Of a stretch of DNA of 64,000 bases, positions 17,660 to 59,634 are shown one piece after another. The position numbers and the translations under genes were made by a program. Source of the stretch: a virus; IMG/VR virus record IMGVR_UViG_3300031227_000015. The stretch is one strand, 5' to 3'. How positions within the stretch are numbered: position 1 is the first letter of the stretch; each line of letters opens with the position of its first letter. The notes under the pieces are model-generated. The model did not search any database. It saw only the letters and a program-made list of their open reading frames with translations, and had not been told where the DNA came from.

Positions 17660-17745
17660 AGGAGGACAGAGGGTAGCTCCCTTTGGTTGAATGCCACTAC
17701 ATCTAACCTAACTCCTTTTAAATAAACCTTAGTGGGGGTAATATT
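17660..17745 (+). promoter_or_regulatory. Three-way-junction cis RNA with RBS pseudoknot (copy A)
   Basis: AGGAG-GA-CAG..hairpin..GGTTGAATG-CCACTA-CATCTAACC-TAA-CTCCT; loop pairs with TAGTGG at the RBS. Confidence 0.7.
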
Positions 17746-18627
17746 ATGAAAAAACTTAATTATAATTATGTAAAGGAACAAATAGAGAAAGAAGGATATC
17801 AATTACTTAGCAAAGAATATGTTAATAATAGAACCAAATTAAAAATACAATGTAGTAAAGGGCATAAATTTGAAATGCGATATTGTCATTTACAACAAGG
17901 ACAAAAATGTCCAAATTGTAATAATGATAACATCAGACTTAGTTATGATTATGTAAAGGAACAAATAGAAAGTGTTGAAGGTTATAAATTATTGTCACCA
18001 ACTTATAAAAATAGTAGGTCAAAAATAAAGGTACAATGTAGTAAAGGGCATATTTATAATGTTACTTATGGTAATTTTTATATGGGATATAGGTGTCCAT
18101 ATTGTGCGGGTATAAAATGCCATATATATGATTATGTAAAGGAACAAATAGAAAGTGTTGAAGGTTATAAATTATTGTCACCAACTTATAAAAATAGTAA
18201 AACCAAATTAAAAATACGGTGTGGTAAAGGACATGAATATGAGGTTGTATATGGCAGTTTTCATAGTGGTAGAAGATGCCCATATTGTAATAAATTTAAA
18301 GGAACATCAAAAGCAGAAAAAGAAATTGATGAAATGGTTAAGGAATTTCTACCTAATGAAAATATAATAGAGAATGACCGTACTCAAATAATTAATCCAC
18401 GAACAGGACACAATCTTGAACTTGATGTATGGATACCTTCATTGAAGAAGGCAATTGAATATAATGGCATATATTGGCATTCAGGTAATTTAACAAAAGA
18501 AAAAGATAAGGAAAAAATAAAACAATGCAAAGAAAAGGGTATAGAATTGTTAATTATAGAGGAAGAAGATTGGTATAGTAATAAAAATAATTGCATTGAA
18601 TTATTAAAGGATTTTATAAATGACTAG
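17746..18627 (+). CDS. Zinc-ribbon-repeat PD-(D/E)XK endonuclease (homing-endonuclease-like)
   Basis: Three C..GH....CP.C repeats; ELDVWIPSLKKAIEYNGIYWH. Confidence 0.8.
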   Translation: MKKLNYNYVKEQIEKEGYQLLSKEYVNNRTKLKIQCSKGHKFEMRYCHLQQGQKCPNCNNDNIRLSYDYVKEQIESVEGYKLLSPTYKNSRSKIKVQCSKGHIYNVTYGNFYMGYRCPYCAGIKCHIYDYVKEQIESVEGYKLLSPTYKNSKTKLKIRCGKGHEYEVVYGSFHSGRRCPYCNKFKGTSKAEKEIDEMVKEFLPNENIIENDRTQIINPRTGHNLELDVWIPSLKKAIEYNGIYWHSGNLTKEKDKEKIKQCKEKGIELLIIEEEDWYSNKNNCIELLKDFIND

Positions 18628-19354
18628 ACTGAAACATTATATAGATGAAGAACTTATAAATGAAAGTATTAATGATAAAGGTATCTTACATGCCTGTTTT
18701 TTATCTGGAATGAGTGGAAGCGGCAAATCGTATACAATCCAAAAAATTAAAGATGGTTCTATTGAGCCAAGAATTGTTAACACCGATAAAATGACAGAGC
18801 ATTTAAAAGCTTATGATATTGATAAATGGATTGATGTTGAAGATATTGTAAAAAGAACTACAAAGAACCAGTTAGTTCTTTATCTTAATAGCTTATTACC
18901 ATTATGGATTGATGGTACGTCTGCAAAACCCGCTTCTGTAATGAGAAGAAGTGGTATATTAAAATCAATAGGATATGATGTAAGTATGGTCTGGGTTACA
19001 GTATCTCTTGAGACTGCCTTAATTAGAACTAAAGAAAGATCTAAAACTGGTCGTGAAGTACCAGAAAAAATAGTTATTAAAATGTATAATCAATTACGAG
19101 GACTTAAAAAATATTATTCTACTGAATTTAATCATTTTACAGAAATTAAAAATGATGAAGGGGAACTTACTAATAAAGTTATATTACAAGCATATAAAAG
19201 GGAGACGACATTTTTCAATTCTCCCGTTAAAAATCCTATAGGTATACATCAAATAAATAATATGAAGAAAAATGGTCATAAATATCTTATTGATACAAAA
19301 GAATATGATAAGAAATATTTGGATAAATTAGTATCCAGTTGGTATAGGAAATAA
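18620..19354 (+). CDS. P-loop kinase (zeta toxin/AAA_33-like) with leader
   Basis: GMSGSGKS, VNTD, IDGT, R...R...GR.VP. Confidence 0.75.
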   Translation: MTRLKHYIDEELINESINDKGILHACFLSGMSGSGKSYTIQKIKDGSIEPRIVNTDKMTEHLKAYDIDKWIDVEDIVKRTTKNQLVLYLNSLLPLWIDGTSAKPASVMRRSGILKSIGYDVSMVWVTVSLETALIRTKERSKTGREVPEKIVIKMYNQLRGLKKYYSTEFNHFTEIKNDEGELTNKVILQAYKRETTFFNSPVKNPIGIHQINNMKKNGHKYLIDTKEYDKKYLDKLVSSWYRK

Positions 19355-19358
19355 ACTA

Positions 19359-19973
19359 ATGACGAGACTACAACAATACCTTATAAATGAAGAGTTTCAA
19401 GATATCAATAAATTAGTTGCAATGCTTAAAGCTGATTGTAAGCCCTATCTATCATTACTCAAAAGAACTGATAAAATGTTATGTAGAGGTATTGACTCTC
19501 CTCCTAAAACTAATATTTATGAAAATGAAGTATATTATTTTAAAAGTAAACCTCGTAAAGATCGTAGACCATTAAGCACAGGACCGTTAGTACATAAGCA
19601 ATTAGATGATCTGTTCAAAAAGAAGTTCGGATGGAAAGCAAGGAGTGAAGGAGTGTTTGTAAGCTCTGATTATGGAACAGCATCAGGATATGGACATACT
19701 TATTTCTTTTTCCCTATAGGACAATTTAAGTATGTATGGTCTCCCAAGGTAGGGGACATATGGATATATCTTAAATCACATATAAGCAGTAGAAAAGGAA
19801 AGAGTGAACAACCAGATTTATCAGCAACAGTAGATTCATATATAGATAAAAGTTTAGTGAAGGCTATAGAATTGGAGCATGAAGTGGCAATTAAATGTAA
19901 AGAGTACTATATGGTTGATGTGGAACTTGATGGAGAAACCTTTTCAAGAGTATTTAAGGATGCATTGCTATGA
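19359..19973 (+). CDS. Leader-bearing protein, paralog of 43836-44564 (possible ART-like fold)
   Basis: MTRLQQYLINEE; CKP, RG, R.DR.P, FGW..RS.GVF, YG, P.G..KYVW. Confidence 0.6.
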   Translation: MTRLQQYLINEEFQDINKLVAMLKADCKPYLSLLKRTDKMLCRGIDSPPKTNIYENEVYYFKSKPRKDRRPLSTGPLVHKQLDDLFKKKFGWKARSEGVFVSSDYGTASGYGHTYFFFPIGQFKYVWSPKVGDIWIYLKSHISSRKGKSEQPDLSATVDSYIDKSLVKAIELEHEVAIKCKEYYMVDVELDGETFSRVFKDALL

Positions 19974-20401
19974 GTAGATTCCAGAAATACCTTTTAAGAG
20001 AGTGGAAGGTAAATAAATCCTACTCAGGTAGAAGCATGATAAAACCTAATAGTACTATTTTATGGCAATATATACCTTCTAAAGGTCTTGTTTACACACT
20101 TTCTGATGGCACTACATATGTCAATAACAAAAAGATAGGTAAGATGATACGCTCGGATTCTCCACAAGCTACTCATAAGAAGCAATTAGCATCCTTTTAT
20201 AGTGAATTGGGGTTTAAGGATAAGGACAAGAGGCAATACATAGAAGATATATATGAAACTTTTGTTAGAGGAAGGATAGTAGACAAGAACATTTATGTGT
20301 ATTCTTCTGATTATGTTGGTATAGAGGCAAAAAAGTACAACAGAACTATGGATAAGGCAATTGATATGATTTATAAATATGTTGATGAGGATTATAATTA
20401 A
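19970..20401 (+). CDS. Leader-bearing hypothetical protein
   Basis: MSRFQKYLLRE; GRI...IYV...DKAI..IYKY shared with the 22700 and 43435 ORFs. Confidence 0.6.
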   Translation: MSRFQKYLLREWKVNKSYSGRSMIKPNSTILWQYIPSKGLVYTLSDGTTYVNNKKIGKMIRSDSPQATHKKQLASFYSELGFKDKDKRQYIEDIYETFVRGRIVDKNIYVYSSDYVGIEAKKYNRTMDKAIDMIYKYVDEDYN

Positions 20402-20402
20402 T

Positions 20403-21827
20403 ATGAGACTCCAGAGATATATAAATGAAGCAAAGGAACAACTAAAGCAATGGAAGGACTATGTGAGGTCTAACAAAATGCTCAAAGCAGCTGTTAAAAT
20501 ATTAGAAAAAATTAATAAGAAAGGATACAAAGCATATATAGTTGGTGGAACTGTCCGTGATATAATCCTTGGAGAAAAACCTCATGATGTTGATATTGCT
20601 ACTAATATGCCTATACCCGAAATAGAAAAATTATATAAGACCTATGATATTGGTAAATCTAAGACATTTGGTATTGTTGTTGTTAAAGAAGGAGGTTATG
20701 ATTTTGAGCTGGCTTTATTCAGGAATGACGGGAAATATTCTGATGGGAGGAGACCCGAATCTGTTATTGTTACTGGTTCGTTTGAGCAAGATGCTTCTCG
20801 TAGAGATTTTACTATCAACGCTATGGGAATCAATGCGAAAGGTGAAATTTTGGATTACTTCGATGGTAAGAAGGATATTAAGAACAAGGTTTTAAGAACA
20901 GTTGGTAATCCACATGAACGATTTGGAGAAGATTACCTTAGGATGATGAGAGCACCGAGATTTGCTTCTAAACTTGGATTTGATATAGAGAAGGGTACTA
21001 AGAAAGCAATCAAGAAACTATCTAAAAATATTATTAAGTTATCCCCTGAACGCATAAAGGATGAGATAATGAAATCAGCTGCTCAATCAGGAGACAAGTT
21101 CGCTAAGTATATCATACAGTTGGATAAGTTAGGTATACTCAAACATATACTACCAGAGATAAAACAGTTACAATATAGTCCTGAAGATCTAACACACCAT
21201 CCTGAAACTATCGGTAAGGGCGGAAGTCCATTTGCTCATACTATGGAAGCACTTAAAGTTTCTAATACAAGAGAACCTTTGAAGAACCTTGCTATACTTT
21301 TACATGATGTTGGAAAGGGTGTTACGTTTTCTGATACAACACCAGGTAAGATTTATACATATTATGGACATGATGCTGAAGGTGTAAAACTTATAGAGGA
21401 AATTGCTAAGAGATTGAAGATGTCTAATAAGGAAAGAGATACTTTATTATTTACAGCGGCTAACCATATGAAATTCCACCGTATGAAGGAGATGAAACCC
21501 TCTAAAATATTCAAATTAGTTAATGATGATAATTGGGATGCATTAATTTCTGTAGCTATGGCTGATGAATTTTCAAGAGGAGAGAAGTTCATGAGTAAGA
21601 AGGATTTTGATGCCTCTTTAAAGGCTGCTATAAAGATAAAAGAGAAATGGGGTAAGAAGGAAGTTAAAAAGAGGATGAAACTTGTGGATGGTAATCATGT
21701 GATGGAATTGTTGGGTATAGGTCCAGGTAAAAAGGTTGGAGAAGTGATAAGGAAAACAACTGAATGGATATTAGATATGGATATTTCAAAACAAGAAGAA
21801 ATAGATAAGTATATAAGGGGTATATAA
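20403..21827 (+). CDS. cca: CCA-adding tRNA nucleotidyltransferase with HD domain and leader
   Basis: VGGTVRD, DVDIAT, RRDFTINA, EDYLRMMRA.RF, ERI, HT..LLHDVGK; MRLQRYINE leader. Confidence 0.9.
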   Translation: MRLQRYINEAKEQLKQWKDYVRSNKMLKAAVKILEKINKKGYKAYIVGGTVRDIILGEKPHDVDIATNMPIPEIEKLYKTYDIGKSKTFGIVVVKEGGYDFELALFRNDGKYSDGRRPESVIVTGSFEQDASRRDFTINAMGINAKGEILDYFDGKKDIKNKVLRTVGNPHERFGEDYLRMMRAPRFASKLGFDIEKGTKKAIKKLSKNIIKLSPERIKDEIMKSAAQSGDKFAKYIIQLDKLGILKHILPEIKQLQYSPEDLTHHPETIGKGGSPFAHTMEALKVSNTREPLKNLAILLHDVGKGVTFSDTTPGKIYTYYGHDAEGVKLIEEIAKRLKMSNKERDTLLFTAANHMKFHRMKEMKPSKIFKLVNDDNWDALISVAMADEFSRGEKFMSKKDFDASLKAAIKIKEKWGKKEVKKRMKLVDGNHVMELLGIGPGKKVGEVIRKTTEWILDMDISKQEEIDKYIRGI

Positions 21828-21873
21828 GGAAGGGGTATATTATGAGATTATAACAATATATAAGGAGGTTATT

Positions 21874-22209
21874 ATGAGTATACAAGAAAAAATAGAAAAA
21901 TATTTGGTTAATGAAGGTAAAGATGAGTATAAATATGATACTATGTTAGCTGATAATATTGCTGATATTATTGAAACACATTTAAAAGGAAAAAACGCAT
22001 ATATTAAAGGTGAAAAACTTATCAAAAAGGAAATAAAAGAAGCTAAAAAAAGAACAGGATATAAAGGAAAAAATTGGAAAGAACTTTTACAAGATGCTGT
22101 AGATAATCTTGAAATTATGTATGATTATGAAATACATGATGCACCTGTTAGTAGTAATAAAGGTAATAAAATATCTAATTTTATAGATATACTTGAGAAG
22201 ATAAAATGA
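21874..22209 (+). CDS. Leader-bearing hypothetical protein
   Basis: IEKYLVNE; AAGGAGG RBS. Confidence 0.6.
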   Translation: MSIQEKIEKYLVNEGKDEYKYDTMLADNIADIIETHLKGKNAYIKGEKLIKKEIKEAKKRTGYKGKNWKELLQDAVDNLEIMYDYEIHDAPVSSNKGNKISNFIDILEKIK

Positions 22210-22703
22210 GATTAGAACAGTATATAAATGAAGGTTCAGAAGAATTTTATGACATCTTAGCCTCCAACCACAAGAAATTTCATGAACACATGACCAGTAT
22301 GGATGAAATGTTTGATAAGGATGTGAAGTTGGATAAACCAATGTGGGATGGTAAATATTTTACTGTAAAGTTCACTGTAGAAAATACCATATATACATTC
22401 AAAGCCATGGAGAATGATAAAAATGAATATTCCATACTTTTTTACTCCTTCGACAAAAATTTATTTGACATAAAAGGTGATAAAAGATATGTAGGTGATG
22501 TGTTTTCAGGAGTTGTTAAATCATTACAAGCACTTATTAAAACAAGAAATGTGGAAATGTTTTGGTTTAACACTAATGAGCCTAAATTGATAAAACTATA
22601 TGACAAGGTACTAAAGAAATTAGAAAGGAAGTTTAAAGGATATGAGTTTGATAAATCCTTAGTAGTTGATGATTACAAATTCTGGAGATTTGAGAAAAAA
22701 TGA
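22206..22703 (+). CDS. Leader-bearing protein, paralog of 23780
   Basis: MRLEQYINE; S..EMFDKDV, GDVFSGV. Confidence 0.6.
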   Translation: MRLEQYINEGSEEFYDILASNHKKFHEHMTSMDEMFDKDVKLDKPMWDGKYFTVKFTVENTIYTFKAMENDKNEYSILFYSFDKNLFDIKGDKRYVGDVFSGVVKSLQALIKTRNVEMFWFNTNEPKLIKLYDKVLKKLERKFKGYEFDKSLVVDDYKFWRFEKK

Positions 22704-23119
22704 GACTACAACAATACCTATTAAGAGAAGCAAGAGTAAGGAAGACAAATGCTGATGTCTTCTTAAATGATTACGCTCCTATTTTCATGTGGAGCCCTAA
22801 AGATGGATTCTTATGGGCTGTATGGGATGAAGATGAGAGATGGATGCTATTTCATGGGTCAAAAAAATTGGAAAAAAGATTTGAATATACACATACTTCT
22901 TATACACATCCCCAATTGTTAAATGCTTACAAGGGTAATGATAGGAACCTTGAAAAATTCATAACAGGAAGAATAAGCCCCGATGGAAGAACAATTTATG
23001 TGCATGATTTCGGTAGTAGACCTTACCTTGCTGATACTATAACAACTATTCGTTATGATAAATATGTTGATAAAGCAATAGATAATGTTTATAGGTATAT
23101 GAAGGGTTACATTAAATAA
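22700..23119 (+). CDS. Leader-bearing protein, paralog of 43435-43839
   Basis: MRLQQYLLREARVRKTNA. Confidence 0.6.
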   Translation: MRLQQYLLREARVRKTNADVFLNDYAPIFMWSPKDGFLWAVWDEDERWMLFHGSKKLEKRFEYTHTSYTHPQLLNAYKGNDRNLEKFITGRISPDGRTIYVHDFGSRPYLADTITTIRYDKYVDKAIDNVYRYMKGYIK

Positions 23120-23132
23120 GGAGATAATTAAT

Positions 23133-23447
23133 ATGAAACTAAAACAATATTTGCTGAATGAAGAAAGACTGAGTGGTGGCGACAAGAAGACCCTAAAGGG
23201 GTATATCAAAAATCCTAAAAAAGCTTCCTTCTTGTTAAGTTCATTTTCCAAGAATTATGATGAATCGGAAAGAGAAGTAGATGTTGAGAAATTGAAAGAT
23301 GGGGTAGAATTTACTTATAATATGGATCACTATGAACTGACAAATGCTTTAGTCAATATGGTTGATAGTATGGATGAATATCAATTTAGTACCAGTGGTG
23401 AAAAACAAACCAATACCATGTACTTCAAGGTATCGAAGGAAAAATAA
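23133..23447 (+). CDS. Leader-bearing hypothetical protein
   Basis: MKLKQYLLNEE. Confidence 0.6.
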   Translation: MKLKQYLLNEERLSGGDKKTLKGYIKNPKKASFLLSSFSKNYDESEREVDVEKLKDGVEFTYNMDHYELTNALVNMVDSMDEYQFSTSGEKQTNTMYFKVSKEK

Positions 23448-23783
23448 ATGAGTATAACCTATACACCAAAGGGCACTCCAGCGATGAAAATTGGAAATTA
23501 TCAATTAACCTTAACTTCTACCAGTGGGGATAAGGAAAAATGGAAATGGTTAACTGTTTCTACTGGCAGTAATAGAGACATAGTACCATTTACTCTTCTT
23601 GGTCTAAAACAAAAGGTGGTACCTCTAAAGCTCAGGAATAGAATGAAGAAAGTATTTAAGAAGTATGTTGCTAAGGATGGGTTCATATACAAGAAAGATG
23701 TAGAGAAGTTATGCAATGATCTTAGTATAATGGATGAGAGTGTTACTAACCGTATGGATGATTTACTGGATTTATTACTATGA
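23448..23783 (+). CDS. Hypothetical protein
   Basis: ORF in operon. Confidence 0.55.
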   Translation: MSITYTPKGTPAMKIGNYQLTLTSTSGDKEKWKWLTVSTGSNRDIVPFTLLGLKQKVVPLKLRNRMKKVFKKYVAKDGFIYKKDVEKLCNDLSIMDESVTNRMDDLLDLLL

Positions 23784-24310
23784 AATTTCAACGATATATG
23801 GATGAAGATGGACATATTGAAATTTTAACAAGTTGGGAATATCAAAATCAACTTCATGGATTTAAATCATTAGAAGAAATGTTTGATAAAGATGTTGAAT
23901 TTGGTAAAGTAACAAATACTAAAGAGTTATTGATGGTAAACTTCAGCACAAGTAACGATAAATGGGCATTCAAAGCTAGTAGGGTATTAGGAGAAGATGA
24001 TATATATGGTATTTTATTTAATAAAGTAGGAGATAAACCTGAAAATATGTTTAATCCAAAGGGTGGTAGTGATTATACTGGTGATGTGTTTAGTGGTGTG
24101 TTCAGATGTATTGAAAAATTGATAAAGGATAGAAATAGAAATGTAAATGGTATAGCCTTTAAAACTGTTGATAGGAAGTTGTTATCATTATATAAGAGAA
24201 TGTCAAAATGGGTAGAAAAGAGATTCCCGAATTTTGTGTTTCAAAAGGAATTACATAAAAAAAACTCTACTGAATTCGTATTTATGAGAAAGGGGATTGA
24301 GATTAGATGA
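23780..24310 (+). CDS. Leader-bearing protein, paralog of 22206
   Basis: MKFQRYMDE; GDVFSGV. Confidence 0.6.
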   Translation: MKFQRYMDEDGHIEILTSWEYQNQLHGFKSLEEMFDKDVEFGKVTNTKELLMVNFSTSNDKWAFKASRVLGEDDIYGILFNKVGDKPENMFNPKGGSDYTGDVFSGVFRCIEKLIKDRNRNVNGIAFKTVDRKLLSLYKRMSKWVEKRFPNFVFQKELHKKNSTEFVFMRKGIEIR

Positions 24311-25038
24311 GACTAAAACAATACTTGAATGAGAAAAGGATTCGTAGATTTAGGTTTAAAAAGCAGAAGAAACGTATTGATCCTATAGTGCGCATAAAGA
24401 AGGCTGAATCTATAGTAAAGAAAGGGTTAGTTAAACTTACTAAAGAATTAAGTAGTGTAGGATGGAGTATTGAGTTCTTTGATCTTCTAAAAATCATGAG
24501 TTCAGTATGGAAAAGGGATCGTATAAAGTTTATTCCTGATGAAGGATTGGTTCGTATGAAAGAATTAAAAAACGCCAAGTATATGGATTCTGGTGATACT
24601 GATATAGATGGTGATATAGAATTACAAATTACTACAAGAATTATGGATTATATTTCTAAAGAGCAAAACAAGGAAAGTTTATCCAGTATAAAGAATGAGT
24701 TTGCACAAGAATTTGTTAGAGTGTTGTCTCATGAATTAGTACATAGAGCACAATGGCAATCTTATGGTGAGATAGTACATAAAAGCATTCTTAAAAATAG
24801 AAAGGTCAAGGATAGTTATGTACAGTATAAAGAGTACCTGAAATCTCCTCACGAAATGATGGCATACGCACAAGATGCAGCATATGAAATTTTTCAAAAC
24901 AGAGAGCCTGGTATATACTATTTATATCAATATTGGTTTGATGATGAGCCAGAAGTCTTTAAAAGCTTTGTAAAAATAATGAAGAAATCCTATAAGAAAA
25001 TCAGTGATGGGGAAGAGTTGATAATCGAGGTTAGATAA
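24307..25038 (+). CDS. Leader-bearing HExxH zinc-metallopeptidase-like protein
   Basis: MRLKQYLNE; LSHELVHRAQ...YL.SPHEMMAYA. Confidence 0.65.
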   Translation: MRLKQYLNEKRIRRFRFKKQKKRIDPIVRIKKAESIVKKGLVKLTKELSSVGWSIEFFDLLKIMSSVWKRDRIKFIPDEGLVRMKELKNAKYMDSGDTDIDGDIELQITTRIMDYISKEQNKESLSSIKNEFAQEFVRVLSHELVHRAQWQSYGEIVHKSILKNRKVKDSYVQYKEYLKSPHEMMAYAQDAAYEIFQNREPGIYYLYQYWFDDEPEVFKSFVKIMKKSYKKISDGEELIIEVR

Positions 25039-25040
25039 TT

Positions 25041-25355: not shown

Positions 25356-25368
25356 TAATCTGACACAA

Positions 25369-26799: not shown

Positions 26800-26834
26800 T
26801 TACAATCCCTTTCTTTCATTCTGTCCAAATTCTT

Positions 26835-27425
26835 TCATGTTACTATATGTTTCCAATTTTTACCATATTTTATACTACCTATTGTTGTTTTGGCTACATT
26901 ATAAATCTTAGAAATTTCCATATTTCCTTCACCTTTTTGTAATCTTTTCTTAATTTCTATAACTTCCTTTTCTGTAAGTTTAACAAGAGGATGTTTCTCT
27001 CCTACTCTACCATAACAAGGATTGTATATACCCTTTACATTAGCATGATTTTCTTTCATTTTTTTTATTGTTTTTTCGGAATGTTTTTTACCATACATAG
27101 GATTGTTTTTTCCTATATTATCATTTCCTCCCCAGGTAAGATTATATCCATTTTCAGTTTTAAAACTATGATATTGCTTTATATAATGGAATTCCATTTC
27201 ATCTAATTCTTCCTTAGATGAACATTCTTCAAGTATTTCCCATTCAAAATTTTCTTTCCCATACTTATTAAGAGCATTATGAAAATATATATTGTTATAT
27301 TTAAGTGATTCTCTTAAATGTTCTAATTTCCTTTTATGTAAACCCTGAATAGTCTGACCTATATAGCATTTACGATTAATTTTATTAGTTGATTTATAAA
27401 TTATTCCTAAAGGTTTTTCTTTCAT
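26835..27425 (-). CDS. GIY-YIG homing endonuclease with NUMOD3 repeats
   Basis: GIIYK.TNKIN.KCYIGQT, GYN...GG, NPMYGKKHSE; RBS AAGGAG supports start 27425. Confidence 0.88.
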   Translation of the reverse strand: MKEKPLGIIYKSTNKINRKCYIGQTIQGLHKRKLEHLRESLKYNNIYFHNALNKYGKENFEWEILEECSSKEELDEMEFHYIKQYHSFKTENGYNLTWGGNDNIGKNNPMYGKKHSEKTIKKMKENHANVKGIYNPCYGRVGEKHPLVKLTEKEVIEIKKRLQKGEGNMEISKIYNVAKTTIGSIKYGKNWKHIVT

Positions 27426-27456
27426 TTTGATATAGCTCCTTATATAAATAGAATTG

Positions 27457-27530
27457 TATGGAGGGACAATTTGGTAGATAGCTCCACCAAACCGGATAAG
27501 TGGTACCAAGCACCTATCCTTACCTTCATA
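27457..27530 (+). ncRNA. Inverted copy of the three-way-junction motif, antisense to the GIY-YIG leader
   Basis: TATGGAGG-GA-CA..TTTGGT/ACCAAA..GGATAAGTG/CACCTATCC-TTA-CCTTCATA; flanked by opposing TATAAATA motifs. Confidence 0.5.
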
Positions 27531-27560
27531 TATCTATTTATATTTTTAAGCTAAAATTAT

Positions 27561-33636: not shown

Positions 33637-33913
33637 AACTTTAAATGATCTAAAAAAGGAATTTGGAGTAGCCAATATAGGTTCCACACTAAAGCTTAAT
33701 GGTTGTGAGGAAACAATTACTTCTGGTATGGAGAAATATTTTGATGGTGAAGAATTGGAGGTAACTGAGTTGAAAGAGGAAGGAGAAGGTGTATTCATAG
33801 AATTTAATGTTGATGGTGGGTATTGGTGGATTAATAGAAAGTGGATTGATAGAGGCTATAGAATTGATTATGATGATATAGACTATTTATTTGAGAAGGA
33901 GGTTGGTGGGTAA
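33620..33913 (+). CDS. Hypothetical protein, paralog of 34263
   Basis: GG.W....WID....I.YDDI..LF. Confidence 0.55.
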   Translation: MKLRLKTLNDLKKEFGVANIGSTLKLNGCEETITSGMEKYFDGEELEVTELKEEGEGVFIEFNVDGGYWWINRKWIDRGYRIDYDDIDYLFEKEVGG

Positions 33914-34266
33914 TGAAACATTTCGTATATGAAACCACAAATTTAATTAATGGAAGAAAGTATATAGGTAAGCACTCTACTAACAATATGGAGGATGGGT
34001 ATTTAGGGTCAGGTACAGGAATATCTTTAGATATTCAAAAATATGGTAAAAAGCATTTTAAGATAAAAATACTCAAGAAATTCAAAACTGAAGACGAGGC
34101 TTACCATTATGAAAGTAAGAAGTTAAAGAAAATAATGGAGAGTAAAAGAGAATACTACAATAGGATTTCAGGAGGAACGGGTAAAAAGGTAAAGGTCACA
34201 AAAGAAAAGAAGGAAAAACCTAAAAATATACTGAAATCTTTACAAGGGATATTTAAAAAATCATGA
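33913..34266 (+). CDS. Short Seg-like GIY-YIG endonuclease
   Basis: VYETTNLINGRKYIGKHST..DGYLGSG, YYN...GG. Confidence 0.8.
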   Translation: MKHFVYETTNLINGRKYIGKHSTNNMEDGYLGSGTGISLDIQKYGKKHFKIKILKKFKTEDEAYHYESKKLKKIMESKREYYNRISGGTGKKVKVTKEKKEKPKNILKSLQGIFKKS

Positions 34267-49358: not shown

Positions 49359-49363
49359 AATAA

Positions 49364-50494: not shown

Positions 50495-50495
50495 T

Positions 50496-51241: not shown

Positions 51242-51253
51242 TTTTTACCTCCT

Positions 51254-52239: not shown

Positions 52240-52524
52240 GATTCACAACAATCCTTATCAGAGCAATCACCATCACACTCTCCTATTATCTCTTCTTCTG
52301 ATACCACAACATCTACTTCTTCTATATCATCTAACAAATCATTGATATTCATGAACATTACTCCTCACCAAATTTTAAAGAACCTGTTAATTTACTTTTC
52401 TTCTTCTTTTTCTTCTTCTTTGGTTTACCTATAAGATCAATTTCACCTTCTCCCCTATTCACAGCAACATCACCTGTTACGGTGGTTTCATCCAATACCA
52501 TATCTATTTTGTTCAATAAATTTC

Positions 52525-53076
52525 TCATTTTAATACACCCCTCATTGCCTTCTCAAAAGTATCTAATGCCTTAATTTCCTTTTCGGTCCCACCCATCCTA
52601 TCTAAAACCTTCCTTACATACCTCAATTCCTTTTTAATGTATTCAATATCTTCATACCAGTAGTTTATGGTAGCAATTTCTATTCCAAATACTGATTGTA
52701 TGATATGCCTTATATGTGCTGTTAATCCTATAGATACTTTATCGAGTTGCATCAACATTCCCATAACATCCTTTTTATTTATAGACTTAAACACATTCTT
52801 AGCATCCTTGACTAATTCCTTCCTTGATTCATTATCCCTTACATCCGTCATCATGAATAGAGTTGCATATCTCAATAAATCCTCAGTACCCTTTTCAGCA
52901 CCTCTGAAGTAATCTACAAGGCTTTTAGATTTCTTAACTCTGAAACCCATCTTCTTACCGGCAGATTTCAGCTTTTCAAAAGTATCATTACCCATTTCAT
53001 CTAATCGTAATAATTCACCAAGTCCTATATATTCACTTAGTATATTATCTTCATTTATGTAAGCCTGTAATCTCAT
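52525..53076 (-). CDS. Leader-bearing hypothetical protein
   Basis: MRLQAYINED. Confidence 0.6.
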   Translation of the reverse strand: MRLQAYINEDNILSEYIGLGELLRLDEMGNDTFEKLKSAGKKMGFRVKKSKSLVDYFRGAEKGTEDLLRYATLFMMTDVRDNESRKELVKDAKNVFKSINKKDVMGMLMQLDKVSIGLTAHIRHIIQSVFGIEIATINYWYEDIEYIKKELRYVRKVLDRMGGTEKEIKALDTFEKAMRGVLK

Positions 53077-53570
53077 TAATCTACCTTTATATCCCTTAAT
53101 AAAAATTCCAATTTGTCTGATAGTTTCTTATCTATTATTTGTTCTTGTTTTGCTATATCCATTTGATTATTTATAGTATCAGTAATAGAATCTCTCACAA
53201 ACATATATGATATTGCCATAAGTGCAAAAGCGACACATACAACAGTTATCATAGTTGTAACCCTTTTAGTTAAGGTTGATATCTTTTTACTTATACCACT
53301 CAATTCATCCTTACTATCCTCTATATCTCTTATAGGATCTGATGTATTTTGTCTATGATCATCTAAACAGTCCTGTAATTCATTTATTAATCTAACTATA
53401 TCACTATGAGAGGGAGAAGAGGAGGAATTAAACAACTCTCTAATAGTTGATGATAATCCTTCTATTTGTTTATCTGATTTGTCTGAAGAATCTTTAACTT
53501 GATCGAATAATCTTAAAATTATTTCAATATTTTCATTTTCCATATTTATTACTTCCTTATCTGCAATCAA
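53076..53570 (-). CDS. Coiled-coil single-TM protein
   Basis: Hydrophobic helix MITVVCVAFALMAISYMFV. Confidence 0.55.
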   Translation of the reverse strand: MIADKEVINMENENIEIILRLFDQVKDSSDKSDKQIEGLSSTIRELFNSSSSPSHSDIVRLINELQDCLDDHRQNTSDPIRDIEDSKDELSGISKKISTLTKRVTTMITVVCVAFALMAISYMFVRDSITDTINNQMDIAKQEQIIDKKLSDKLEFLLRDIKVD

Positions 53571-53967
53571 CTATAGAATTCAACGTAATCAGTAATAAAT
53601 TGAGGTCTATGGGTTTAGTGTGTAGAGCAACCACACCTAAAAGCGTCATTTCTTCTTTAATTTCAGGGGACATATAACCACTTACAACCACAGTTTTACA
53701 AGGTTCTAAATATTTCTCTATAAAATCAAAAGTATTAAAATTTACTATTTCCTTTTCTTCAGCATTCAAAGGAACCTTTAGGTCGCATAAAAAACAATTC
53801 CAATAATCAATACCATTATCTTTAATTGCATTTACGGCTTCCTCTATATTATGGTATATGTTTACTTGGCATATATTAGTAGTCTTAAAAAAATTTATAT
53901 AGATGTTACATATATCTATATCATCTTCTAATATGAAAATCTTTTTATTCATCATATAAGGTCCCAT
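53557..53967 (-). CDS. Stand-alone response-regulator receiver domain
   Basis: IFILEDD, CDLKVP (phospho-acceptor Asp), VSG, TKP. Confidence 0.8.
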   Translation of the reverse strand: MGPYMMNKKIFILEDDIDICNIYINFFKTTNICQVNIYHNIEEAVNAIKDNGIDYWNCFLCDLKVPLNAEEKEIVNFNTFDFIEKYLEPCKTVVVSGYMSPEIKEEMTLLGVVALHTKPIDLNLLLITLNSIVDCR

Positions 53968-54421
53968 TATCTGTAAGGTTTAGCATTGCATACATTTCTT
54001 GATTATTTTCTCTTAGTCTGTTGAATCTTTCTTCTTTTTCCTCCTTCCATTTGATTATTTTTCCATCTAATATTTTCGATAGTTTAATTTCATTATTTTT
54101 ATTTTCTGTGATATCGTTAGCTATTACCAATGTACAATCATAACAATCATAACCATCCTGATACACTGGTAAAATGGAAAATTCTAACCATACACTATTA
54201 TCATTAAATTTTAATTCTACTATTCCATTTTTTTCACTATCATTAGTCTCAACAGGACATTCAATACTATCATTAGCACTAAATTTTTTAAATAATTCAA
54301 AAGCTGTTTTATTAGCAAAGATAAGATTATCATCCTTATCCTTTACCCATATTATATAATGAATATTGTCCATCACTCCTGAGATATACTCGCACCTTTC
54401 AATACCTTTTAGTAATGCCAT
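53945..54421 (-). CDS. PAS-domain protein
   Basis: IWVKD.D..LIFANK...W.E....P...DITE. Confidence 0.75.
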   Translation of the reverse strand: MALLKGIERCEYISGVMDNIHYIIWVKDKDDNLIFANKTAFELFKKFSANDSIECPVETNDSEKNGIVELKFNDNSVWLEFSILPVYQDGYDCYDCTLVIANDITENKNNEIKLSKILDGKIIKWKEEKEERFNRLRENNQEMYAMLNLTDNGTLYDE

Positions 54422-55090
54422 TTATTTAATCTCCTTGAGTTTTCCTGAAGGTAGAACAAGCAATCCATAGAAGGATATTACAGGGAATGTTTCACCGTCA
54501 GGAATATGATGTTTTTCTCTAACTCTATTTATGATGTCTTGGGGTAAGGTTTGCTCTATTGATAGGAATTTTTTGATGTTAGTCATATCGTCGTCTAAGA
54601 GTCTACAACGTCTGTATTCACCTGATTCTAAATATTTCATTATAGTTTTTTTCTTTTGGCCTGATATACTTGTTGTACCTTCAGGTGAAAATTCTACATC
54701 AATTTTATCTATCGGCAAACCAACCTTTTTGAATGCAGCTTTGAATTTCTTCATATCTTTAAATCTTGATCGAGCCGTTAGTAGTACTACCTTTGATTCT
54801 CTGTAGTCTATATTCTTGAACATGCGTTTTACTCTATTTATAGTAGGTAGGATTGGTTTAGATGTATCATAAAATATAGAAGCATCTCTAAACTCAGAAT
54901 AATCATAACTCTCTCCAGGTTTGAGTTCATAGGTGTTGAATTCTTGATTAGAAAGTTTTTTGATTACTTTACCATCCTTTAGTACATAAATTTTAGCGAA
55001 TGTGTTGAAGAGCGTGCAATCTATATCGATAAAAGTGATACCGGCACCATATATTGAGCTTAATTCATTTAGGTGTTTCCGTAGTCTCAT
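54422..55090 (-). CDS. HAD-superfamily phosphatase with leader
   Basis: MRLRKHLNE; FIDIDCTLF, LLTAR, K, LLDDD..N. Confidence 0.8.
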   Translation of the reverse strand: MRLRKHLNELSSIYGAGITFIDIDCTLFNTFAKIYVLKDGKVIKKLSNQEFNTYELKPGESYDYSEFRDASIFYDTSKPILPTINRVKRMFKNIDYRESKVVLLTARSRFKDMKKFKAAFKKVGLPIDKIDVEFSPEGTTSISGQKKKTIMKYLESGEYRRCRLLDDDMTNIKKFLSIEQTLPQDIINRVREKHHIPDGETFPVISFYGLLVLPSGKLKEIK

Positions 55091-55094
55091 TTGT

Positions 55095-55514
55095 TTATTC
55101 TCTCCATTGTTTTAAGGGGGTGTCTATTTCTATATATTTATTGACCCATTTAAATTTTTCTCTGAATTCATCCAAAGCGTTATAATCCATATCAAAATAA
55201 GCACTCATTTGGTCTGAATTAACCATTACATATTTTCCACCTTTCTTTATAGCAACACCTTCAAAAACAATACCTTTTTGTGATAATTTAATCTCATCAT
55301 CTTTACCTGATATTTCTTTCCAAGCATCTTTATGTATACAATTAGCAGCACCCCATACATATAATTTCTTTGTTTTATTATCAGCTATAAATCTAACACC
55401 AAAATCATTAGCATCCCCCATTTCTTTAAAAGTGGGGTTTACAAAAATATCATATCTTAAATCATGAAATTTACCTCTCATTAAATATTTTTCTATCAAA
55501 TAATCCAAATGCAT
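55095..55514 (-). CDS. Hypothetical protein, paralog of 25041
   Basis: IFVNPT..E...VRFIADNKTKKLYVW. Confidence 0.55.
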   Translation of the reverse strand: MHLDYLIEKYLMRGKFHDLRYDIFVNPTFKEMGDANDFGVRFIADNKTKKLYVWGAANCIHKDAWKEISGKDDEIKLSQKGIVFEGVAIKKGGKYVMVNSDQMSAYFDMDYNALDEFREKFKWVNKYIEIDTPLKQWRE

Positions 55515-55541
55515 ATAAAATTCCCCTAATCAATACTTTAT

Positions 55542-55582
55542 TATTTATATTTATACTTTAAATATAAATAGATATATAAATA
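55542..55582. promoter_or_regulatory. Divergent T4-type late promoters
   Basis: TATAAATA on minus (55542, 55548) and plus (55563, 55575) between divergent gene blocks. Confidence 0.6.
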
Positions 55583-55602
55583 TAAAAGTAGGAGGGATTA
55601 TA

Positions 55603-56157
55603 ATGAGGTTCCAAGAATATTTAACAAGTGAAGGATTGCTTGTAGAGAATATCTTTCAAAAATATATGAAAAAACTGTCCAATAAGTCATCTAAGGTAGT
55701 AGAAAAATTGATGAAGGATAGTTGGATTAAGTTAGCAATCATATTAAAATCAAATCAATTAGAAAAAGATGCCCTTGATATAATTAACAAGCATTTCAAA
55801 ACCAATTATAGGAATTTAGATCAGGTAAGTAAAGCCAAAATAGCAAAAATGCCTACTAAGGGTGTGTATGAAGAGGAAATGCTAGTAGAGGATTTTAAGA
55901 ATTATTGGAAATTTTTAAAGGATCAGTTATTTCCAACACTTGCATTTTGGCCAGCATTAAAAATTTGGCTTGAAATTGATAAACTTGTTGCTGGATCAGG
56001 TGGAGCTGATTTCCAAACTATAGGAATTTATGCAATATTTTGGGTATTTCTTGTAAGTGGTAAATTTGTAGGTTCTTGGAATGAATGGAAAAAGGAAAAT
56101 TCAAAAGAATATGAAAAGGAAGGTAGTAGGAAAAATCCTTTTGCTGTAAAGAAATAG
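55603..56157 (+). CDS. Leader-bearing protein with hydrophobic C-terminal segments
   Basis: MRFQEYLTSE. Confidence 0.6.
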   Translation: MRFQEYLTSEGLLVENIFQKYMKKLSNKSSKVVEKLMKDSWIKLAIILKSNQLEKDALDIINKHFKTNYRNLDQVSKAKIAKMPTKGVYEEEMLVEDFKNYWKFLKDQLFPTLAFWPALKIWLEIDKLVAGSGGADFQTIGIYAIFWVFLVSGKFVGSWNEWKKENSKEYEKEGSRKNPFAVKK

Positions 56158-56242
56158 GAGGACAGGGTTTGATCACCTTGGTTAGATACCACTTTATCTA
56201 ACCTAACTCCTTAAAGTATAAATCTAAGTGGAGGTTAATATT
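56156..56242 (+). promoter_or_regulatory. Three-way-junction cis RNA with RBS pseudoknot (copy B)
   Basis: AGGAG-GA-CAG..GGTTAGATA-CCACTT-TATCTAACC-TAA-CTCCT; loop pairs with AAGTGG at the RBS. Confidence 0.7.
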
Positions 56243-57040
56243 ATGAAGATATGTTGGGATAATTTAGAAGAACTAAGGTATAATAAGAAAACGGGTAAAT
56301 GGTATAAAGGAAAGGGACCTACAACTTACATTTATAAAGAATCTTGTAAAAATTGTGGAGAACCATTTTTAGCACAACCACATACAAAAGGAAAATATTG
56401 TAGTAATAGATGTCATTGTTTAGATGATAGTTCATCAAAAGAATGTTCAAAAGAATGTTCAAAAATATTAAGTATTATAGCATTAGAAAGGTATAAAAAT
56501 CCTGAAAACCACCCTAGTTGGAAAGGAGGATATGCTTCTAACAATATACCGATGTATGATACCTATGCTCCTCAGATAGAATGGTGTGAGGAAGTAAGGA
56601 GGAATAAAGAAGACCTAAATATATTAGAAGTGAGATGTACTTATTGTGGTAAATGGTATATATCCACACCTCAAAATATATGTGATAGAGTAAGATGTAT
56701 TAATGGTTATAATAAAGGACAATGGGAAGGGAGACTTTATTGTTCTAATCAATGTAAACAAGAATGTCCAATACATGGGCAAGTAAAGTATACTAAAGGA
56801 TTTAAAATTAATACATCCAGGGAAGTTCAACCAGAATTAAGGCAATTAGTATTAGAGAGAGATGGATATAAATGTGTTAAATGTGGTTCTACTAAATCAT
56901 TACATTGCCATCATATAACTGGAGTAGAAATAAATCCTATTGAAAGTGCTGATATTGACAATTGCATTACTTTTTGCAAGGAATGCCATAATAAAATACA
57001 TAAACAAAAAGAATGTAATATGAGAAGGAAGAAATGCTAA
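56243..57040 (+). CDS. HNH endonuclease with zinc fingers
   Basis: VLERDGYKCVKCG....LHCHHI......N..T.CKECHNKIH; NHPSWKGG. Confidence 0.88.
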   Translation: MKICWDNLEELRYNKKTGKWYKGKGPTTYIYKESCKNCGEPFLAQPHTKGKYCSNRCHCLDDSSSKECSKECSKILSIIALERYKNPENHPSWKGGYASNNIPMYDTYAPQIEWCEEVRRNKEDLNILEVRCTYCGKWYISTPQNICDRVRCINGYNKGQWEGRLYCSNQCKQECPIHGQVKYTKGFKINTSREVQPELRQLVLERDGYKCVKCGSTKSLHCHHITGVEINPIESADIDNCITFCKECHNKIHKQKECNMRRKKC

Positions 57041-57056
57041 AAAGGAAAAATAAATA

Positions 57057-57257
57057 ATGTTGATAGAAGAAATAGATAAATACTTAGTACAGGTTGACAG
57101 AATAGATACTGTAAACTCAATAGGTATAATGGATATAGAAGAGATTGTAGAGTTTATTACCGATTCTACAGATGAATATAAGAATAAAATATTAGGGATG
57201 CTTGATATAAATAAAAGAAAGGAAGTAGAAAAGTTAATAGAAGGAGGAGTACTATAA
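57057..57257 (+). CDS. Hypothetical protein
   Basis: IDKYL leader-like start. Confidence 0.5.
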   Translation: MLIEEIDKYLVQVDRIDTVNSIGIMDIEEIVEFITDSTDEYKNKILGMLDINKRKEVEKLIEGGVL

Positions 57258-57694
57258 TGGCAAATGATAGAGTGTTAGACCAACTTGATACGTTATTGGG
57301 TGGTAGAAATGATAATGGGATGTTCGGAAATAAACCCGTGTTCGAACAAGAAATGTTTGATAAGATGTATGATTTTATCGTTTCTCTTGAACCTGACCAG
57401 CTTACAGAAGAACAGGCCAATGATGTAATGGGTATAATTGAAGAAATTGAAATTGAGTATGAAGGGGTTGATGAAGACGAAGATGATTTAGATGAAGCTC
57501 CTAAAAGAGTAAAAAGAAATCGTTCAGCTGCTAGAAAAAGGGCAAAAGCCTATAGACGCAATAAAAGTACAAGAAAAAGGGCAGCTAAGAAGTATAGAAA
57601 GAGCTCAAGAGGAAAACAGATGGCTAAGAAATCAAAGAGAATGTCTAAAAGAGGTAAAACAGCCACGGGTAAGCGGATTCGTCAATATAGATAA
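57257..57694 (+). CDS. Acidic/basic bipartite protein (prohead-core-like)
   Basis: Acidic N-half, LDEA, then a very K/R-rich tail. Confidence 0.5.
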   Translation: MANDRVLDQLDTLLGGRNDNGMFGNKPVFEQEMFDKMYDFIVSLEPDQLTEEQANDVMGIIEEIEIEYEGVDEDEDDLDEAPKRVKRNRSAARKRAKAYRRNKSTRKRAAKKYRKSSRGKQMAKKSKRMSKRGKTATGKRIRQYR

Positions 57695-58155
57695 TGAAGG
57701 ATCTTAAAGATGTCAGGAAACATGGGCAGTTCATACCCCATGATCCTAAAAAATATGTGGGTAGATATCCAATAATAGCAAGATCTTCCTGGGAACGAGT
57801 ATTCTTCCAATGGTGCGATGCCAATTCTTCTATAGTTGAATGGTCCTCTGAGTCTGTTATTATACCTTACTTTGACCCGATTAAACAAAAAAGAAGAAGG
57901 TATTTTCCCGATGTCTATATGCTTGTGAAAGGTAAGGATAATAAGTTACAACAGTTCATAATCGAAATTAAACCATTCAAGGAGTGTAGACCGCCTACTA
58001 ATAGAGGAAGAAAGACTAAAAAGACACTACTCTATGAGAATAGTACATGGGCTACAAATAATGCTAAATGGATAGCAGCAACAAAATGGTGTAAAAAGAT
58101 GGGAATGGTGTTTAAGATTGTAACTGAAAAGGAATTATTCGGTAAAAGGAGTTAA
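57694..58155 (+). CDS. gp4: Head completion nuclease (T4 gp4-like)
   Basis: P.KY.G, RSSWE, WSSE...IPY, RYFPD, IEIKP, N.AKW.AA, TE..L. Confidence 0.9.
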   Translation: MKDLKDVRKHGQFIPHDPKKYVGRYPIIARSSWERVFFQWCDANSSIVEWSSESVIIPYFDPIKQKRRRYFPDVYMLVKGKDNKLQQFIIEIKPFKECRPPTNRGRKTKKTLLYENSTWATNNAKWIAATKWCKKMGMVFKIVTEKELFGKRS

Positions 58156-58306
58156 ATATGAATAGATCAATGGAAAAAGCGATGGAAAAGGTCACAGGTA
58201 TAAAATACAAAAAAATTATATCTTCCAATGATTTATTTTCCGATGATCAGTTGGATGAAATTTTAAAAGATCTTGAAAATGATGAGGAAAGGGTAGATAA
58301 TGATCA

Positions 58307-58786
58307 ATGAATTTTGAAAAATGGTTAGAAGGCCTTAGTGATAAAGAACTTGAAGAGGCCATGAATGTTAAATATGATTACATTGACAATACTAAAGGTC
58401 TTATAGGTAGATGGAGTTTCATATCAAAGAGTGGTAGACGATACGATGTAACAGGTTCTAAATTATCGAAAGATATTTTCCATGCAATGTTTGAATATGT
58501 TGATAAAGAAGGCAATACGATGTCATCCCTTACAAACTTTAAGGATAATCCAACTGCCATAATGAATTCAGTGTACAATATTGTAGAAACTGAACTTATT
58601 AAAAAATATCATCCTAAAGAATTGAGATTTGAAGCTGAAGGTGATAAGAGACAAAAAATGTATGATGTAGTAATAAGGAGATATATACTTCCAAAAATGA
58701 AAAAATACGGATATGACCTATATACAGAAAAGAAGGAAGAATTACCAATGAAAATATATAGATTTATAAAGGAGTTAAAAGTATGA
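58307..58786 (+). CDS. Leader-bearing hypothetical protein
   Basis: MNFEKWLE..LEEA. Confidence 0.55.
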   Translation: MNFEKWLEGLSDKELEEAMNVKYDYIDNTKGLIGRWSFISKSGRRYDVTGSKLSKDIFHAMFEYVDKEGNTMSSLTNFKDNPTAIMNSVYNIVETELIKKYHPKELRFEAEGDKRQKMYDVVIRRYILPKMKKYGYDLYTEKKEELPMKIYRFIKELKV

Positions 58787-58983
58787 AATTCAATGAATGG
58801 TTAATCAAAGAGATGCAGGGAAAGGGAACTGGTCCAGAAGGTTCAGGCGGAGCAGATACATGTATATGCCCTGAATGTGGCAACGAAGCATCACATGAAA
58901 GAGGAACACCTTGCAATCAATCTAAATGTTCAAAATGTGGTGCATCAATGACTGGTAAAGGAGCACCTGGAGAGAAGAAATAA
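58783..58983 (+). CDS. Small Cys-rich zinc-binding protein with leader
   Basis: MKFNEWLIKE; GG...CICPECG....HERG.PC....C..CG..M. Confidence 0.6.
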   Translation: MKFNEWLIKEMQGKGTGPEGSGGADTCICPECGNEASHERGTPCNQSKCSKCGASMTGKGAPGEKK

Positions 58984-59532
58984 GTGAGATTGAAGGCTGT
59001 TATAGATAATTTTCACAACCATTTAGTAGAGATAGCCAATAATTGGAAACCTAATGACCCTGCTGTACGAAAGGTTGGTAGGGGTAAATGGGTTTTTACC
59101 GTAGATGTTGATGATTATATATTTAAAGTATCACCTCTATGGATGAAAGATGGTAGAAAGGGGTTTACTATAGAATGGGGACCTGTTGATGAGAATGGTA
59201 ACATAATAACAACAGAAATAATAGGTAGCAAGAAGAACAAAAGAGACGTATTTAGACTTGTGTTGACTTGTTTATCTAAGTTTATAAATTCTGAAAGACC
59301 GGAAGTGTTCTCCATGTATGTAAATAATAGGATTGTTCACATATACGATGCTATGTGGGCGGGACACTATAAGGAAAAACCGTTTAACCAATATTACAAA
59401 GATTCTGAAGAGCATAAAACATTGAATGGTGAAAAAGTTTATGTTCATTATTTCAATAAGAAGAAGGTAGATGGTGAGGATGTTTCAGAAGATATGAGGA
59501 TATTACTAAAAAGAGAAATGTTGCTGTTATGA
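58984..59532 (+). CDS. Leader-bearing hypothetical protein
   Basis: MRLK...LVE. Confidence 0.55.
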   Translation: MRLKAVIDNFHNHLVEIANNWKPNDPAVRKVGRGKWVFTVDVDDYIFKVSPLWMKDGRKGFTIEWGPVDENGNIITTEIIGSKKNKRDVFRLVLTCLSKFINSERPEVFSMYVNNRIVHIYDAMWAGHYKEKPFNQYYKDSEEHKTLNGEKVYVHYFNKKKVDGEDVSEDMRILLKREMLLL

Positions 59533-59540
59533 ATTATTTG

Positions 59541-59634
59541 AAGGAGGACAGCACCGACGGGTGTTGGTTGGATGCCTATTACATTTAACCTTACTCCTTA
59601 TTAATAAAGAAACTTTAATAGGAGGTTAAATATT
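59541..59634 (+). promoter_or_regulatory. Three-way-junction cis RNA with RBS pseudoknot (copy C)
   Basis: AAGGAG-GA-CAG..GGTTGGATG-CCTATTA-CATTTAACC-TTA-CTCCTT; loop pairs with TAATAGG at the RBS. Confidence 0.7.

Follow-up and report, generated by a model that had tools for sequence, protein, structure and literature searches.

The DNA analysed here, hereafter the window, is a 64,000-nucleotide (nt) stretch of the virus record IMGVR_UViG_3300031227_000015 in IMG/VR. It contains three copies of a structured RNA leader, each of which lies 5' of a different nuclease gene and runs through the ribosome-binding site (RBS) of that gene to its start codon. Among the selfish elements of large phages, homing endonucleases are the principal ones, and those of phage T4 are known to need tight translational control. 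The phage of the window is uncultured; it has a T4-type DNA polymerase that is about 30% identical to the polymerases of cyanophage and pelagiphage myoviruses, as well as tail, head-closure, and endolysin genes. Neither a megablast search with 8 kb of the window nor a blastn search with the leader gave a match among deposited phages. The three leaders and the genes that follow them are listed below, with P1 to P4 denoting helices, L3 and L4 the loops of P3 and P4, and SD the Shine-Dalgarno sequence.

17660-17716, plus strand: junction of copy 1, P1 formed by 17660-17664 with 17712-17716 (pattern match, covariance model R1 at 66.1 bits, minimum-free-energy fold); P2 at 17668-17684 (loop UAGCU), P3 at 17685-17708, L3 CCACUA at 17694-17699
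17717-17748, plus strand: A-rich linker and SD hairpin P4 of copy 1 (duplex, constrained folds); ACCU 17726-17729 with GGGU 17736-17739, L4 UAGUGG 17730-17735 complementary to L3, AUG at 17746
17746-18627, plus strand: nuclease gene 1, 293 amino acids (aa); CapR, DUF4379, and a weak REase_MTES_1575 (PD-(D/E)XK-type) match (Pfam, PHROGs)
56156-56211, plus strand: junction of copy 2, P1 formed by 56156-56160 with 56207-56211 (pattern match, minimum-free-energy fold, R1); P2 at 56164-56179 (palindrome UGAUCA in the loop), P3 at 56180-56203, L3 CCACUU at 56189-56194
56212-56245, plus strand: linker (with TATAAATC in it) and P4 of copy 2 (duplex, constrained folds); AAUCU 56221-56225 with AGGUU 56232-56236, L4 AAGUGG 56226-56231, AUG at 56243
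56243-57040, plus strand: nuclease gene 2, 265 aa; HNH endonuclease of the 'MKICWDN' type (Pfam)
59542-59598, plus strand: junction of copy 3, P1 formed by 59542-59546 with 59594-59598 (pattern match, minimum-free-energy fold, R1); P2 at 59550-59565 (stem CACC/GGUG, loop GACG), P3 at 59566-59590, L3 CCUAUUA at 59575-59581
59599-59637, plus strand: linker and P4 of copy 3 (duplex, constrained folds); AACUU 59611-59615 with AGGUU 59623-59627, L4 UAAUAGG 59616-59622, AUG at 59635
59635-60894, plus strand: nuclease gene 3, 419 aa; repeated CxxC zinc-finger-like modules, C-terminus matching PHROG 5104

A preliminary description of this DNA, made from the letters alone, had reported three copies with a common pattern, complementarity between a loop and the sequence before the SD (CCACTA/TAGTGG, CCACTT/AAGTGG, and CCTATTA/TAATAGG), and a common 3' end, AATATT-ATGAA. 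The complements and the 3' end are present in all three copies, and the pattern, i.e., AGGAGGACAG, a hairpin, GGTTRRAT, a loop, and ATYTAACC, has exactly three matches in the window (17660, 56156, and 59542, all on the plus strand) and none in 100 dinucleotide shuffles. The copies can be aligned from AGGAGGACAG through the start codon, and the minimum-free-energy fold of each is a three-way junction on the sense strand, composed of P1 (AGGAG/CUCCU), the variable hairpin P2, and P3 (GGUURRAU...AUYUAACC).

Further copies were sought with DNA-pattern scans of viral contigs and then with R1, a covariance model of the junction, a check that the preliminary description had proposed. With R1, the viral loci and their parent records yielded 29 distinct copies, and metagenome contigs about 60 others. 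After removal of duplicates, the family has a minimum of 90 different leaders from contigs of uncultured phages, and 90 of 90 fold into the same junction. Several leaders may be present in one genome, e.g., three in the window and six in the record G001. In a model-based alignment of the first 29 leaders, 97.3% of the junction cells are standard pairs and nine pairs show changes on both sides, as compared with 35-58% of cells paired when the partners are slid by one to three columns. P3 is 99% paired and six of its eight pairs covary, the base included (GGUU/AACC to GAUC/GAUC, GGUA/UACC, and GAUU/AAUC), while the P2 stem is wholly compensated in window copy 3 (CACC/GGUG). In P1, the outermost pair can be A-U, U-A, G-C, or G-U; very little variation is seen in the other four pairs (GGAG/CUCC) and in the bases GAC, UU, and UWA of the junction. 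The leaders are thus a real and strongly covarying RNA family. Looser DNA patterns gave mostly chance matches in viral contigs, plus one distant subfamily that scores 38-44 bits with R1 and was excluded from the statistics. This subfamily (L031:2436-2499 and L034:646-709, with identical copies in L036, L037, L041, L044, L047, and L049) has a longer P2, and an exact TATAAATA both 6 nt 5' of P1 and within the linker; no clear complementarity between L3 and L4 was seen in it. In a scan of genome contigs nearly all matches were due to chance, and since only a single contig passed the model (L073, a 4-kb contig in a Bacteroidetes bin), no host is named.

Beyond the junction itself, L3 matches the SD region. 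L3 was taken from each fold and its best duplex was sought in the 60 bases 3' of P1; the loop contact and P4 were counted with a duplex-anchored script, and a MAFFT alignment of the full leaders set L4 out of register. In 28 of the first 29 leaders, all 6-7 nt of L3 find a perfect complement in a stretch whose end lies within the SD, 5-14 nt before the AUG. L3 is 6-7 nt long (rarely 8) and usually reads CCNNNNN, and 62 distinct L3 sequences are found among the 90 leaders; nevertheless, at least six contiguous L3:L4 pairs are present in 83 of these. Within the 83 leaders, all 567 kissing cells are paired with only three wobbles, and at positions 3-6 every one of the four Watson-Crick types is represented. 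Duplexes with a leader's own partner average -7.87 kcal/mol, which none of 10,000 permutations reached, versus -4.58 kcal/mol with the partners of other leaders. Close relatives differ by matched double changes, e.g., CCACUA/UAGUGG in copy 1 versus CCACUU/AAGUGG in copy 2, and CCUUAGA/UCUAAGG in L063 versus CCUUAGU/ACUAAGG in L064. Seven leaders lack the contiguous contact: L124 keeps five pairs, L126 is by our reading a mis-parsed loop with its complement still visible, and the remaining five look like decayed or truncated copies.

The partner of L3 is itself held in a hairpin. An anti-SD-like segment of the linker, (A)AYCU, is paired with the 3' portion of the SD together with the one or two bases after it (AGGU, AGGUU), and the stem so formed flanks L4 directly. 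This hairpin, P4, formed in 27 of the first 29 leaders in constrained folds, and over the four positions counted outward from the loop 297 of 332 cells (89%) are paired. Pairing is kept in variants such as AACCU/AGGUU, AAUCU/AGAUU, CAAUU/AAUUG, UAACUU/AAGUUA, and GAUUC/GGAUU. L4 comprises the first one or two SD bases and the five bases before them, and the rest of the SD (AGG, often with U) is the 3' arm of P4, such that in 83 of the 90 leaders the SD of the homing-endonuclease gene is split between a loop kissed by L3 and a stem; in some copies L3 itself reads CUCC, so that the core of the SD lies within the kiss. By itself P4 has little stability (about -0.1 to -6.5 kcal/mol) and the kiss adds about -7 to -10 kcal/mol, so most of the SD burial is supplied by the kiss. 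The linker between P1 and P4, about 6-13 nt, is A-rich (A/U-rich) with 2-4% G, as expected for a flexible single strand. A pairing of the linker AAACC with the 5' arm of P3 was ruled out, as it does not covary with the variants at the P3 base.

With both loops complementary over their full length and both stems supported, the L3-L4 contact is, as read from the sequences, an intramolecular kissing-loop complex. The preliminary description had spoken of a pseudoknot with the RBS; the pairing of the loop with RBS-overlapping sequence is borne out, but the partner is the loop of a 4-5 base pair (bp) hairpin, and the contact is a kissing loop rather than a simple pseudoknot. Its remark that G-U pairs favour the sense strand agrees with 46 U-G pairs among the 332 P4 stem cells and with a nearly invariant G10-U26; at the base of P2 a G-U is near-invariant. 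The P4 U-G pairs and the G-U at the P2 base would be A-C mismatches on the other strand, and the sense RNA is therefore the folded molecule.

The genes served by the leader are of several kinds. There is no significant similarity among the three window proteins, in line with the earlier statement that the downstream genes are unrelated. The nuclease types proposed for them hold in part: gene 2 is an HNH endonuclease, but the PD-(D/E)XK assignment of gene 1 is a weak match only, and the HNH of gene 3 is a C-terminal motif (..LDHK..NLQII..N..K) read by eye in a protein with no Pfam hit. Elsewhere, the leader is followed by genes for GIY-YIG+NUMOD3, HNH+NUMOD3, HNH_3, N-terminal HNH, and CapR-type proteins, and the 90 distinct leaders 5' of HNH, GIY-YIG, CapR-type, and other endonuclease genes fit the earlier suggestion of a portable element common to unrelated nucleases. 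The leader is also found 5' of several proteins without a Pfam match and once, as a divergent copy, 5' of a RecA-like gene, so it is not strictly limited to nucleases. The same divergent junction was seen in two contigs (L094:4068-4130 and L157:26-88), where a RecA-like gene follows in one and a GIY-YIG gene in the other.

The place of the leader within the mobile unit is visible where occupied and empty sites can be compared. Related contigs keep the order of the genes around copy 2, and in two of these contigs, L066 and L091, the copy 2 cassette (about 56155-57040) is missing and the same flanking genes are adjacent. There the gene upstream of copy 2 ends in ...NPFAIKK plus seven more codons, whereas in the window it ends in ...NPFAVKK, and the A and G of its TAG stop codon (56155-56157) are the first two bases of P1. 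On the other side, similarity returns at the RBS of the next gene, directly after the nuclease stop codon. The converse site is found in L066, where a leader and an HNH gene separate two genes whose window counterparts overlap (TAATG), with the insertion beginning 5 nt before P1. At both sites the insertion begins no more than 5 nt from the first base of the junction, and the leader is therefore the 5' edge of the cassette, as the preliminary description had supposed when it proposed the end of a mobile cassette. At the site of copy 3, L133 has a GIY-YIG gene with its own leader; different nucleases, each with a leader, thus occupy the same neighbourhood.

From the structure, its covariation, the genes that it accompanies, and its observed place at the cassette edge we infer repression, and it is considered probable (about 0.6) that the leader is both a portable translational brake and the 5' end of a mobile endonuclease cassette. 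The three-way junction would present L3 to P4, which holds the SD, and the L3-L4 kiss and the P4 stem would cover the SD twice, such that the whole of it is buried. Repression is expected to need the junction on the same RNA as P4, because P4 alone is weak and the kiss adds most of the energy. For the same reason, removal of the junction should free translation, either via a transcript start in the linker or via a cut in this A-rich segment. The brake would keep translation of the nuclease low wherever the cassette lands, highly transcribed late operons included. With regard to the translational switch proposed in the preliminary description, the SD is buried by covarying pairs, as a brake requires, but a two-state switch is unsupported, no conserved alternative pairing having been found.

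Four points weigh against a brake of this kind. Firstly, the folding-energy z-scores are unremarkable for copy 1 (-0.34) and copy 2 (-1.45), with -3.01 for copy 3, so the case rests on the comparison with other copies. Secondly, in plasmid ColIb-P9 a pseudoknot between a loop and an RBS-proximal sequence activates translation, which means that repression does not follow from geometry alone. Thirdly, covariation is seen in every helix except P1 (GGAG/CUCC), which like the junction bases hardly varies; this hints at a sequence-specific partner or a second function beyond the needs of a passive scaffold. Lastly, TATAAATA, the consensus of T4 late promoters, is found with at most one mismatch within 45 nt upstream in 44 of the 85 leaders with enough upstream sequence (17 exact), usually with its end 4-12 nt 5' of P1 and most often at 5-7 nt. 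By analogy with T4, transcription from such a box would begin close to the first base of P1. The presumed late mRNA of the gene itself would therefore include the whole lock in about half of the leaders, and as a pure 'off' device would silence the gene entirely on such an mRNA, some release or leak must exist. The route of this release or leak was not found; candidates would be simple leakiness, transcript starts within the linker, and cleavage of the A-rich linker.

One such route is known from T-even phages, where homing endonucleases are repressed by RBS-sequestering RNA structures, and a late promoter inside the structure has been proven for I-TevI and proposed for I-TevII, I-TevIII, segB, and Aeh1 mobE (PMC2988022). 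Applied to the leaders, this would be a temporal switch in which the lock is present on read-through transcripts only and a late promoter in the linker yields an RNA without the junction, leaving the SD free late in infection. The window offers some ground for it: TATAAATA occurs 33 times where 17 are expected, often immediately 5' of genes; no box lies within 45 nt upstream of the three copies; and a one-mismatch box is present in the linker of each (TTTAAATA, TATAAATC, and TATTAATA). The excess of linker boxes over the whole family is modest (11 of 78 leaders versus 4.6 expected, reached by 5 of 1000 shuffles). Nevertheless, the boxes of the window copies, each with its mismatch, are putative, a linker box is present in only 14% of leaders and is independent of the absence of an upstream box (6/40 vs 5/38), and with an upstream box, as in 44 leaders, the lock would be complete on late transcripts. 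Bypass by an internal late promoter, as in T4, may apply to the window copies but is not the rule for the leader family as a whole, and this explanation is held to be unlikely. The 5' ends of the three window copies lie at -2, 9, and 14 nt relative to the preceding stop codon; the gene 5' of copy 1 (17253-17645, plus strand) has a poly-glutamate tail encoded by a long GAAGAA/GAGGAA repeat at 17570-17645. Exact TATAAATA boxes are clustered, two or three together, in intergenic DNA at 14742-14769 (plus strand), 5' of the endolysin gene, and at 55542-55582, on both strands, between divergent late operons.

Another explanation starts from the invariant core. The junction and P1 (GGAGGACAG, UUGG, and AACCUWACUCC) might bind a phage or host protein, the 30S subunit, or a small ligand, and such a partner would open or tighten the kiss and thereby control all endonuclease genes of a phage together. 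P1 and the junction stay near-invariant in the 90 leaders while P2, P3, P4, and the kiss covary freely, the same core is repeated 5' of several genes in one genome, and the 5' arm of P1 is a perfect SD (AGGAGG) with a 3' arm that is anti-SD-like. On the other hand, only about six junction bases are unpaired, no conserved alternative pairing and no candidate factor were found, and conserved junction bases can merely set the helix geometry; a switch worked by a partner in trans is accordingly held to be doubtful.

The loops of P2 bear on the same question. In 19 of 28 distinct forms the apical loop is self-complementary, and 11 have palindromes of at least 6 nt; palindromic forms include UGAUCA, UGGCCA, UAGCUA, GUGCAC, CUGCAG, CUGUACAG, AGCU, and GGCC. 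The palindrome total, taken on the first 12 forms, was reached by 2 of 5000 shuffles. In the window, UGAUCA lies at 56169-56175 (copy 2) and AGCU at 17675-17678 (copy 1), while copy 3 (GACG), like some other leaders, has no palindromic loop. No cis partner for the P2 loop was found upstream or downstream, where a leader's own sequence did no better than permuted sequence. The palindromic loops suggest kissing dimers of leaders, and together with the invariance of P1 and the junction they leave room for a trans factor, ribosome docking, or leader dimerisation. The dimerisation initiation site (DIS) of HIV-1 is a known case of RNA dimerisation. It is conceivable, though improbable on present indications, that the leader goes beyond a passive brake, with the junction and the SD-like P1 acting as a receptor for the ribosome or a phage factor, the palindromic P2 loops dimerising as in HIV-1 DIS, and L3/L4 serving as a private 'key' for each gene. 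If true, all selfish nucleases of a phage would be co-ordinated through an addressable layer of RNA control.

A role in mRNA stability or processing has little likelihood. A junction at or near the 5' end might shield the mRNA from 5'-end-dependent RNases, for which the boxes 5-7 nt before P1 in many copies would place P1 suitably; or the mRNA level might be set by RNase III or RNase E, the target being either the P3-kiss-P4 stack of about 20 bp or the A/U-rich, G-poor linker, and RNase E processing has been reported for the segB, segG, and Aeh1 mobE transcripts (PMC2988022). However, the leader is internal to polycistronic RNA in the window copies, and both forms leave the base-for-base match of L3 with the SD context unexplained. 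The element might instead be a novel self-cleaving ribozyme, or act as DNA (single-strand or cruciform) as a signal for homing or recombination of the cassette. Either would agree with the conserved junction core, the place at the cassette boundary, and the association with mobile elements, but is very improbable given that no ribozyme or other Rfam family matches at E<=10, that the frequent U-G pairs are A-C mismatches on the other strand, and that neither model gives the kiss with the SD anything to do.

Comparison with known RNAs places the proposed brake between familiar elements. An Rfam comparison, which the preliminary description had also called for, was run with Rfam 15: the gathering scan of the window gave tRNA only, E-value scans of each copy (stretches of 120-200 nt, E=10) gave noise, and no covariance model, ribozymes and riboswitches included, matched any copy. 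Beside tRNA-His at 526-600, Rfam called a second tRNA at 613-680 (plus strand, 34.6 bits) that ARAGORN did not report. Two phage- or mobile-element-associated structured RNAs of untested function, like the leaders in these respects, were considered and rejected. The int-alpA RNA (RF02996, gathering threshold 35.8 bits) gave no match at E<=10 in the window copies, nor in five records with 15 copies. For cow-rumen-4 (RF02948, cut-off 48.5 bits), whose consensus has a terminal hairpin with AAGGAGG in its loop, there was only noise (best 15.7 bits), and no listed place coincides with a leader match of R1.

Several classes of RNA share parts of the architecture. Fully complementary loop-loop kissing complexes with loops of 6-7 nt are known from ColE1 RNA I/RNA II and from HIV-1 TAR/TAR*, in which likewise every loop base of two hairpins pairs with the other loop; those complexes join two molecules or are engineered, whereas here the kiss lies within one mRNA and the target loop is the RBS. 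In the guanidine-II (mini-ykkC) riboswitch, translation is controlled by the kiss of two hairpin loops beside the SD, with kissing turning translation on, and the loops are conserved ACGR ligand pockets, in contrast to the hypervariable, fully Watson-Crick loops of the leaders, which include the SD. A functional precedent is provided by the T-even leaders, with which those of the window share a cis RNA structure hiding a consensus SD some 8 nt ahead of the AUG, a T4-like phage with TATAAATA late promoters, and many cassettes that have no promoter of their own and use upstream transcripts. T-even leaders, however, are single gene-specific hairpins that form no common sequence family and are bypassed by an embedded late promoter, whereas the leaders described here have one conserved scaffold of junction and kissing SD hairpin, serve at least four nuclease families, travel with the cassette, and in half of the cases lie wholly downstream of a late-promoter box. 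In the literature, searched apart from the supplements of the 2023 viral RNA catalogue (PMC10690425), this T-even precedent was found and no description of a common junction or kissing-loop leader. Hiding the RBS of a homing endonuclease is thus a known kind of regulation, and the novelty lies in the architecture of the leader, in its portability, and in its position at the edge of the cassette.

Nuclease genes of the window may also occur with other leaders or with none. Two further GIY-YIG-like genes lack the kissing-loop leader. The one starting near 27424 (minus strand) has a different leader at 27424-27545, also a three-way junction, with a TATAAATA box at 27535-27542 followed about 8 nt on by the junction, a P2 loop with the palindrome GGUACC, a P1 3' arm CCUCC that is anti-SD-like, and an AUAUA/UAUAU hairpin with the SD AGGAGC in its loop; neither R1 nor Rfam gave a match to it. 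A GIY-YIG-like open reading frame of 117 aa (33913-34266, plus strand), which adjoins the DNA polymerase gene on its upstream side and is without a structured leader, may be a remnant endonuclease.

The control of homing endonucleases had looked improvised gene by gene; here, a standard and transferable RNA part is carried by unrelated nuclease genes. The covariation record is unusually clean, which makes several questions directly testable, e.g., how mobile elements insulate their expression from the site of insertion. The leader would furthermore be a natural and tunable intramolecular kissing-loop lock on an RBS that synthetic biology might use, and free-standing endonuclease cassettes could be traced in metagenomes by its sequence.

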